Virus record (IMG/VR): IMGVR_UViG_2874945390_000008
DNA: 59,499 bases
Strand: one strand, 5' to 3'
Origin: a virus
Lineage: Duplodnaviria > Heunggongvirae > Uroviricota > Caudoviricetes
Of this stretch, positions 655 through 1,904 are shown piece after piece; position 1 is the stretch's first letter; the number at the start of each line of letters is the position of its first letter. The position numbers and the translations under genes are program-made. The notes below the pieces were generated by a model. The model was not told the DNA's origin. It did no database searches and worked only from the letters and a program-made list of their open reading frames with translations.

Positions 655-1904
655 TGAGGTAGCCTGAGTTTAACGGACACTCCTTCCTGAAATAGAATGG
701 CATCAGAAGGAGCTAATAATAAGCAGAAAAACCCAACGTTACTCTAAAGAGTTCAAAGCCGAAGCTGTCAGAACGGTTCTTGAAAATCAACTTTCGATCA
801 GTGAAGGCGCTTCCCGATTATCCCTTCCTGAAGGCACTTTAGGACAATGGGTTACCGCCGCCAGAAAAGGGCTCGGTACTCCTGGTTCCCGCACGGTGGC
901 TGAACTGGAATCTGAAATTCTGCAACTGCGTAAGGCGTTAAATGAAGCTCGCCTTGAGCGAGATATATTAAAATTTTGCACAGGAGTCGCTGAAAAATAC
1001 GCGTTAATCGAACAATGGCGACAACAATTTCCCATTGAAGCGATGTGTCAGGTATTTGGTGTATCCAGGAGCGGTTATTACAACTGGGTACAGCATGAAC
1101 CCTCAGACAGAAAACAAAGTGATGAGCGGCTAAAACTGGAGATTAAGGTGGCACATATCCGCACTCGCGAAACATATGGAACCCGGCGGCTCCAGACGGA
1201 GCTGGCAGAGAATGGCATCATCGTTGGTCGTGACCGACTGGCACGTCTTCGTAAGGAGCTAAGGCTACGCTGTAAGCAGAAACGCAAGTTCAGAGCGACT
1301 ACGAACCCGAACCACAATCTGCCAGTTGCGCCAAATCTGCTGAACCAGACGTTCGCTCCTACAGCACCAAATCAGGTCTGGGTGGCGGACCTGACGTATG
1401 TTGCCACACAGGAGGGATGGTTGTACCTCGCTGGCATCAAAGATGTTTATACGTGCGAAATTGTCGGCTACGCCATGGGAGAGCGCATGACAAAAGAGCT
1501 GACAGGTAAAGCCCTGTTTATGGCGCTCAGGAGCCAGCGCCCACCTGCCGGGCTAATCCACCACTCTGATCGAGGTTCACAGTACTGCGCATACGATTAC
1601 CGGGTCATACAGGAGCAGTTTGGTCTGAAAACATCAATGTCGCGTAAAGGTAACTGTTACGACAACGCTCCGATGGAAAGCTTCTGGGGAACGCTGAAAA
1701 ATGAGAGCCTGAGCCACTATCGTTTTAATAACCGGGATGAAGCCATCTCAGTAATACGGGAATACATTGAGATTTTCTACAATCGTCAGCGTCGTCACTC
1801 TCGTCTGGGGAATATCTCCCCGGCAGCCTTCAGGGAAAAATATCATCAGATGGCTGCTTAAAAAAAGAACAAATGGTAGTGTCCGCTATTGCCAGTACAC
1901 CTCA
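655..1904 (+). mobile_element. IS600-like copy 1 (1250-bp variant)
   Basis: Ends TGAGGTAGCCTGAGTTTAACGG... / ...GCCAGTACACCTCA shared with the other copies; flanked by 3-bp direct repeat TCC (652..654 and 1905..1907). Confidence 0.88.
719..1861 (+). pseudogene. IS600 OrfAB in-frame fusion frame; start codon ATG replaced by ATA
   Basis: Frame is colinear with the 380-aa fused ORF of copy 3, but position 719..721 reads ATA where copy 2 (36471) has ATG; the ORF track only starts at GTG 896. Confidence 0.6.

Follow-up and report, generated by a model that had tools for sequence, protein, structure and literature searches.

An IS600 variant with orfA and orfB fused in frame by a 14-bp deletion, at four sites in Shigella boydii and EIEC

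The window, which is the whole stretch of 59,499 nucleotides analysed here, is part of the Shigella boydii chromosome CP026836.1, as established by exact-protein match. It was found to carry two copies of a 1250-bp form of IS600, here designated Δ14, in which a deletion at the frameshift site has joined orfA and orfB in a single reading frame. This form occurs at four sites, which, judging by their flanks and by the corresponding loci of related genomes, appear to be simple, recent insertions of the 1250-bp form.

The IS600 copies and the 14-bp deletion

Copy 1 (positions 655–1904, + strand) is 1250 bp long, has intact IRL and IRR with ends TGAGGT...ACCTCA, and is flanked by the target site duplication (TSD) TCC (left 652–654, right 1905–1907). 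Copy 3 (55567–56816, − strand), also of 1250 bp, is flanked by TGG at 55564–55566 and 56817–56819, the duplications of the two copies being different, as the initial annotation of this DNA had stated. Between them lies copy 2 (36407–37670, + strand, 1264 bp, TSD TTT), a canonical IS600 of the V/V sub-lineage described below, and the right end of a further canonical copy, c0, truncated by the window edge, is present at 1–47 (+ strand), 607 bp upstream of copy 1. The inverted repeats, IRL TGAGGTAGCCTGAGTTTAACGGACAC and IRR TGAGGTGTACTGGCAATAGCGGACAC, are identical in all copies; they are imperfect, with a 5'-TG start and a CA-3' end.

The canonical IS3-family layout that had been ascribed to copy 2 was recovered in full. 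Its orfA (36471–36773, + strand) encodes a 100-aa HTH and leucine-zipper regulator with the C-terminus ...RDILKKATAYFAQESLKNTR, and the separate orfB, with an ATG-initiated ORF at 36809–37627 (+ strand), encodes 272 aa including HTH_21 and the rve DDE core. The A7 slippery run of the −1 programmed frameshift (A AAA AAG) is at 36722–36728 (+ strand), where the frame-0 codons TTA AAA AAA GCA contain the A AAA AAG heptamer.

Copy 3 was reverse-complemented and the three elements were aligned base by base over their full length. The sole length difference between copies 1 and 3 and copy 2 is one 14-bp gap at copy-2 positions 319–332, with a placement ambiguous by one A, and it lies at the place originally claimed. 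The 14 bp AAAAGCAACAGCGT occupy 36725–36738 (+ strand) in copy 2, while the junction ATATTAAA|ATTTTGCACAGG left by their loss is at 965–984 (+ strand, breakpoint 972|973) in copy 1 and at 56499|56498 in copy 3. The claim that the A run and 11 following bases were missing stood as to the 14-bp deletion and the strings printed for it, but AAAA remains in copies 1 and 3, and the loss comprises three to four A's and 10–11 further bases. All differences between copy 3 and copy 2 are confined to positions 168–394.

The predicted single in-frame fusion of 380 aa was found in copy 3 as an intact orfAB ORF (55610–56752, − strand; WP_134796357.1 / WNT62290.1) that contains ...RDILKFCTGVAEKY... and has TTC (Phe) in place of TCC (Ser) at codon 35 (56648–56650, − strand), a private marker common to three identical Δ14 copies. 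In copy 1 the start codon is indeed lost, with ATA in place of ATG at 719–721 (+ strand). The fused frame is open until TAA at 1859–1861, and no in-frame start other than the ATA position is usable until GTG at 896, beyond the HTH. NCBI annotates a 380-aa product for copy 1 (WP_134796346.1) despite the ATA, and this product is unique to the CP026836.1 contig.

The deletion takes part of the A7 run, the spacer and the 5' arm of a hairpin, and brings orfB in frame. As 14 equals 15 − 1, it shifts the frame in the same way as a −1 ribosomal slip, so that the single ORF gives OrfAB without frameshifting; and since the orfA stop is outside the frame now read, no OrfA can be made. The fused protein corresponds to the normal frameshift product minus KSNSV (RDILKKSNSVFCTGV to RDILKFCTGV), as seen by comparison with the 385-aa proteins at NCBI. 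For the canonical RNA, the minimum free energy (MFE) and centroid structures agree on a predicted frameshift-stimulating hairpin AACAGCGUAUUUU...AAAAAUACGCGUU (36731–36771 in copy 2, + strand), a few bases directly 3' of the slippery heptamer, and this hairpin is absent from the predicted fold of the Δ14 RNA. The z-score of the 101-nt canonical segment is only −1.6, so the hairpin was called from its position and by analogy with other IS3-family elements, not from statistics. Copies 1 and 3 therefore lack the IS3-family hallmark of two overlapping frames joined by a −1 frameshift at A6–7G with a downstream structure, which copy 2 possesses. The missing hallmark concerns the usual IS3-family architecture and not descent, descent from IS600 not being in doubt.

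The domain content of the transposase is retained. The fused protein matches NF033516 (IS3 family transposase) with 400.6 bits in a single stretch over profile positions 1–369 of 369, and all Pfam domains, namely HTH_Tnp_1, HTH_21, rve, rve_2 and rve_3, are kept. Δ14 thus encodes the N-terminal HTH, a shortened leucine-zipper-like segment and the rve (DDE) core expected of an IS3-family transposase. The deletion point falls between HTH_Tnp_1 (residues 3–75) and the next HTH-like region (residues 92–125). Read from the sequences, canonical OrfAB has a 3-4 hydrophobic (a/d) series consisting of L63, I67, L70, L74, A77, R81, L84, N88, F91 and V95; by this reading, Δ14 would cut the series after L84, with about the last heptad lost or out of register. 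A PDB sequence search with the 380-aa protein returned no match, and a single-sequence AlphaFold2 model of it had a mean pLDDT of 39.5 and was set aside.

The copies in the window have varied surroundings. The canonical copy c0 (TSD GTA) splits a metallophosphatase gene and has an IS4 copy directly upstream (L011:5002-7819), such that IS4, IS600 and IS600Δ14 are stacked within about 5 kb ahead of ipaH. This last gene (2229–3944, + strand) encodes a 571-aa IpaH-type T3SS effector (LRR_TTSS and NEL), for which the closest E. coli annotation is ipaH3/Hc, and its neighbours are phage genes for tail fibres and tail assembly. Prophage-like DNA roughly 1 kb away from copy 2 contains, at 35137–35447 (− strand), four clustered tRNA genes: Gly(tcc), Thr(tgt), Arg(tct) and Met(cat). 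At copy 3, IS sequence has taken the place of the final codons of a prophage AAA_24 ATPase gene (54757–55569, + strand), the ORF of which ends at the TGA of the IS terminus; this gene adjoins gam and exonuclease VIII genes and is uninterrupted in ten EIEC genomes.

Sites, haplotypes and related variants

In addition to copies 1 and 3, Δ14 was found on the same chromosome at a locus designated L005 (CP026836.1:1820904-1830046), where it is nested in the transposase gene of an IS66-family element, and at L006 on CP119444.1, a pINV plasmid from an EIEC strain of French origin. An exact-protein lookup in the public collection returned the 380-aa protein at three places, copy 3, L005 and L006, and these three copies are 100% identical across 1250 bp, the private C>T change (S35F) included; they span two replicons in two hosts. 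Copy 1 is without S35F. The ends are intact at all four sites, each of which has a 3-bp duplication, TCC for copy 1, TGG/CCA for copy 3, CCA for L005 and ACC for L006, and all but one of the copies retain an intact fused ORF.

The 31-mer GATATATTAAAATTTTGCACAGGAGTCGCTG would serve as a search string for the Δ14 form. In BLAST searches with a 100-bp junction query only full-coverage rows were counted, half-length matches being a confounder of the identity bands. Among 5,426 RefSeq complete E. coli genomes none matched the Δ14 junction exactly over its full length, and the junction was absent from JGI metagenome contigs; only one of 72,556 plasmids carries it, and no junction deletion of ~5–19 bp was seen in GTDB species representatives. 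Δ14 is rare, with two assemblies in the collections searched, Shigella chromosomes as a set not being among these collections.

About 13 IS600 copies were compared to define haplotypes, and as the whole-chromosome census was incomplete, the counts that follow are lower bounds. CP026836.1 contains at least eight canonical copies. Those of c0, L023, L024, L025, L027 (copy 2) and L028 share a V/V patch of four SNPs within 28 bp (window 36773–36800, copy-2 positions 367–394), which changes the orfA stop from TAA to TAG and causes two I-to-V changes in orfB. With the exception of c0 these copies are mutually identical, and the five of them must therefore have been recently active. The V/V patch looks like recombination from a more distant IS600 relative (P0015-like, 91% identity). 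Another canonical copy of the same chromosome, L029, is I/I with 667C, exactly the background of Δ14, and between the I/I haplotype and Δ14 all 1250 shared positions are identical but for one or two SNPs. These haplotypes show two IS600 sub-lineages side by side in CP026836.1 and place the origin of Δ14 in the I/I-667C lineage, in which three Δ14 copies and one canonical copy were counted among those sampled.

That the four SNPs 3' of the deletion might be linked to it or compensate for it was considered and rejected, as the same alleles are seen in L019, in L029 and in the majority of canonical 385-aa OrfAB proteins. Copies 1 and 3 have the common IS600 allele at these positions, copy 2 and its V/V sisters representing the unusual haplotype. 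Separately, the flanking triplets do not match at the canonical copies L022, L023 and L024 (CP026765.1 and CP026836.1), which suggests rearrangement by recombination between IS copies.

A second in-frame fusion, Δ17, was found in E. coli. It is a 1247-bp IS600 with intact ends and a fused 379-aa ORF (WP_000088357.1, ...RDILNCTGV...), exemplified by NZ_CP027394.1:3747912-3749158 and found at loci L002 and L015–L018; one Δ17 copy was entered simply as IS600 in PMC6963479. Of 5,426 complete E. coli genomes, 461 gave a BLAST match to a Δ17-specific 44-mer; the median is one copy per genome, and no genome has more than two. The five loci examined have the same flanks, aaccaa / acattc, with no target duplication (CAA/ACA), and have the capU-virK-lpxM island on one side and a BCCT transporter gene on the other. 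Like Δ14, it is an in-frame orfA-orfB fusion by deletion at the exact same spot, has intact ends and is otherwise 99.5% identical; it differs in being 3 bp shorter (ILKFCTG to ILNCTG), in its 667T allele, in the absence of a duplication and in its single fixed locus. Δ17 could have come from Δ14 secondarily, through a further loss of ATT, or have arisen on its own, the two forms differing at position 667. As Δ17 is static and single-copy, frame fusion has not by itself been enough for spread in E. coli; the explanation is either a dead Δ17 protein or the lack of a helper in its host lineages.

Other variants of the frameshift site came from L003 and L007–L010. A Δ13 form, ATATTA|CGTATTTTGC, is out of frame, has no duplication and is known from one public plasmid record; ACA is lost from the spacer in four sister plasmids; and A5 and A6 runs occur in public plasmids. 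These last are probably long-read homopolymer errors, because the A5 record L008 has a second frameshift downstream. It is suggestive that both forms present in many copies or genomes, Δ14 and Δ17, are in-frame fusions.

Transposition of the 1250-bp form

Empty sites were rebuilt from the left flank, a single triplet and the right flank for three of the Δ14 sites, those of copy 1, copy 3 and L006. The copy-3 empty site is present uninterrupted, at 100% identity, in ten EIEC chromosomes, within the prophage AAA-ATPase gene. pINV plasmids of S. boydii and EIEC have the L006 site empty at 100% identity, within the ltrA gene of a group II intron, and five EIEC chromosomes have that of copy 1 empty at 99.7% identity. 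The triplet is present once in each empty site examined. Moreover, neither copy 1 nor the adjacent canonical c0 is present in three related assemblies (L012–L014) whose ipaH gene is identical. The proposal that the variant itself had transposed, made from two copies with different duplications, is upheld at four sites, because Δ14 has its own 3-bp duplications, intact ends, three identical copies and empty sites in relatives. Such transposition attests that the Δ14 DNA is a competent substrate, not that the fused protein is an active transposase, and the transposase at work may have come from the canonical IS600 copies that co-reside with it.

IS3-family elements transpose by a copy-out/paste-in pathway, with a figure-of-eight followed by a circle that carries an IRR-IRL junction, and their transposases, that of IS911 among them, act preferentially in cis. 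The explanation put forward here, to which roughly even odds are given, is that the constitutively made fused protein of Δ14, whose catalytic competence we infer, drives its own insertions, preferentially in cis. A single 14-bp deletion cost a canonical I/I-667C IS600 part of its A7 run together with the spacer and the 5' hairpin arm, and any ribosome starting at the orfA ATG now yields one OrfAB-like transposase of 380 aa in which the HTH, the HTH_21 region, the DDE core and most of the zipper are kept. The OrfA regulator is no longer produced. With its ends untouched, the element is still a substrate for the copy-out/paste-in pathway. It has inserted at four or more sites, and on this explanation it would have done so through its own fused protein acting mainly in cis. 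Engineered precedents are consistent with this, since frame-fused IS2 (A6G to A7G) and IS911 (+1 bp) make mainly OrfAB and have been put to use to supply active transposase (PMC3219604, PMC2909936), and OrfA and OrfB inhibit transposition in IS3-family elements (PMC5771124).

Somewhat less probable, and still a serious contender, is that Δ14 is a passenger, its fused protein being inactive or poor owing to the loss of part of the zipper, and that it was spread in trans by canonical OrfAB using the intact inverted repeats. IS3-family mini-elements are mobilised in trans by OrfAB supplied from another plasmid (PMC5771124), and in IS911 the zipper and M domains are intolerant of mutation, integrity of the zipper being needed (PMC2909936). 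Autonomy of Δ14 is called into question by the five residues missing at the C-terminal end of its zipper, unlike the engineered fusions, which keep the OrfAB sequence. Canonical helpers co-reside in both hosts, with at least eight copies in CP026836.1, five of them identical, and a canonical copy in the EIEC strain as well. Δ17, the closest natural parallel, has an intact ORF and intact ends and yet has remained static in 461 genomes. Finally, the start codon has already gone from one of the four Δ14 copies; copy 1, taken alone, fits a non-autonomous deletion derivative with intact ends and partners in the same cell. Against the passenger explanation, given the cis preference of these transposases, an inactive element would be expected to be picked only rarely when 20 or more live ones are present; yet, among the copies sampled, Δ14 is at least as numerous as its canonical sibling haplotype, and its ORF is intact and identical in three copies. 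Action of the fused protein in cis is the explanation preferred here. OrfA-less IS911 is reported to target IR-like sequences, and a search for such a preference gave no signal, the best score within ±60 bp of each target being 7–9 against a background of 8.1 ± 3.0.

Gene conversion, by which canonical IS600 would have inserted first and been converted later through recombination with Δ14, so that the variant never transposed, is improbable. A tract of ~230 bp would have been enough, as copies 2 and 3 differ only within 168–394, and several IS600 copies of CP026836.1 without matching duplications imply that inter-IS recombination occurs. However, two events would be needed per site at four sites, one of them on the plasmid of another strain; no mosaic haplotype, either a Δ14 with V/V or a partial tract, was seen among the 13 copies compared; and the empty sites in close relatives point to recent insertions. 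An origin of the gap in assembly or sequencing is hardly credible, for although the A5 and A6 length variants in public plasmids resemble long-read homopolymer errors, 14 bp of mixed sequence do not, the identical gap is present in five copies from two independent assemblies of different laboratories, and canonical copies were assembled correctly in the same contig.

Comparison with known elements and significance

Δ14 resembles IS600 (IS3 family, IS3 group, 1264 bp, Shigella/EIEC) in its identical ends, its 3-bp duplication and the same HTH, zipper and DDE domains. It differs in lacking the slippery run, spacer and hairpin arm, in having one ORF rather than two and no OrfA, and in a transposase five residues shorter. 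ISfinder treats elements with at least 95% nucleotide identity as isoforms, and Δ14 falls within this rule, with 98.7–98.9% identity, gap counted, to copies that NCBI names IS600. With the engineered IS911 (+1 bp) and IS2 (A6G to A7G) it shares the independence from frameshifting, OrfAB as the only or main product and the absence of OrfA (PMC2909936, PMC3219604). In those fusions the OrfAB residues were left unchanged by design, whereas Δ14 is natural, propagated and without KSNSV.

ISSfl10 (NCBI/ISfinder name), an IS600 relative represented by the 376-aa protein P0007, belongs to the same 90% protein cluster as IS600. It was considered as a possible named fused form and rejected, since its KKSNSV frameshift segment is still in place and its deletion is another one, with nine residues missing from the catalytic core. 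A literature search on IS600 frameshifting and OrfAB fusions, fused IS3-family elements and ISSfl10 found no description of a fused IS600. Δ14 sequences are already in GenBank under generic names, labelled 'IS3 family transposase', canonical copies being named 'IS3-like element IS600 family transposase' by NCBI. Δ14 is a real architectural variant of a known IS, undescribed in the literature searched, and does not amount to an element of a new kind. Its occurrence is limited to one lineage, and its mechanism is predictable from the engineered precedents.

Programmed −1 frameshifting counts as the central brake on IS3-family transposition, since it sets the OrfAB:OrfA ratio; to our knowledge, this brake has so far been removed mainly by engineering. 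Δ14 is a natural element rid of it, present alongside canonical copies of two haplotypes, and thus offers a ready-made comparison. For practical purposes, IS typing by the ends of IS600 cannot tell Δ14 from the canonical form. If Δ14 is not autonomous, it shows that defective copies mobilised in trans have a share in IS expansion; an autonomous Δ14 would show the effect of losing the brake on copy number and target choice in a pathogen genome under IS expansion. A bolder reading, proposed tentatively and with some doubt, is that Δ14 is a naturally derepressed autonomous IS600 that makes transposase only, tolerates its shortened zipper and is out-multiplying its canonical sibling in the S. boydii/EIEC lineage. 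Were this so, Δ17 would be a relic left by that route at an earlier time, domesticated or dead, frameshifting would be dispensable for transposition of an IS3-family element in the wild, and its loss could bring an element a short-term advantage.
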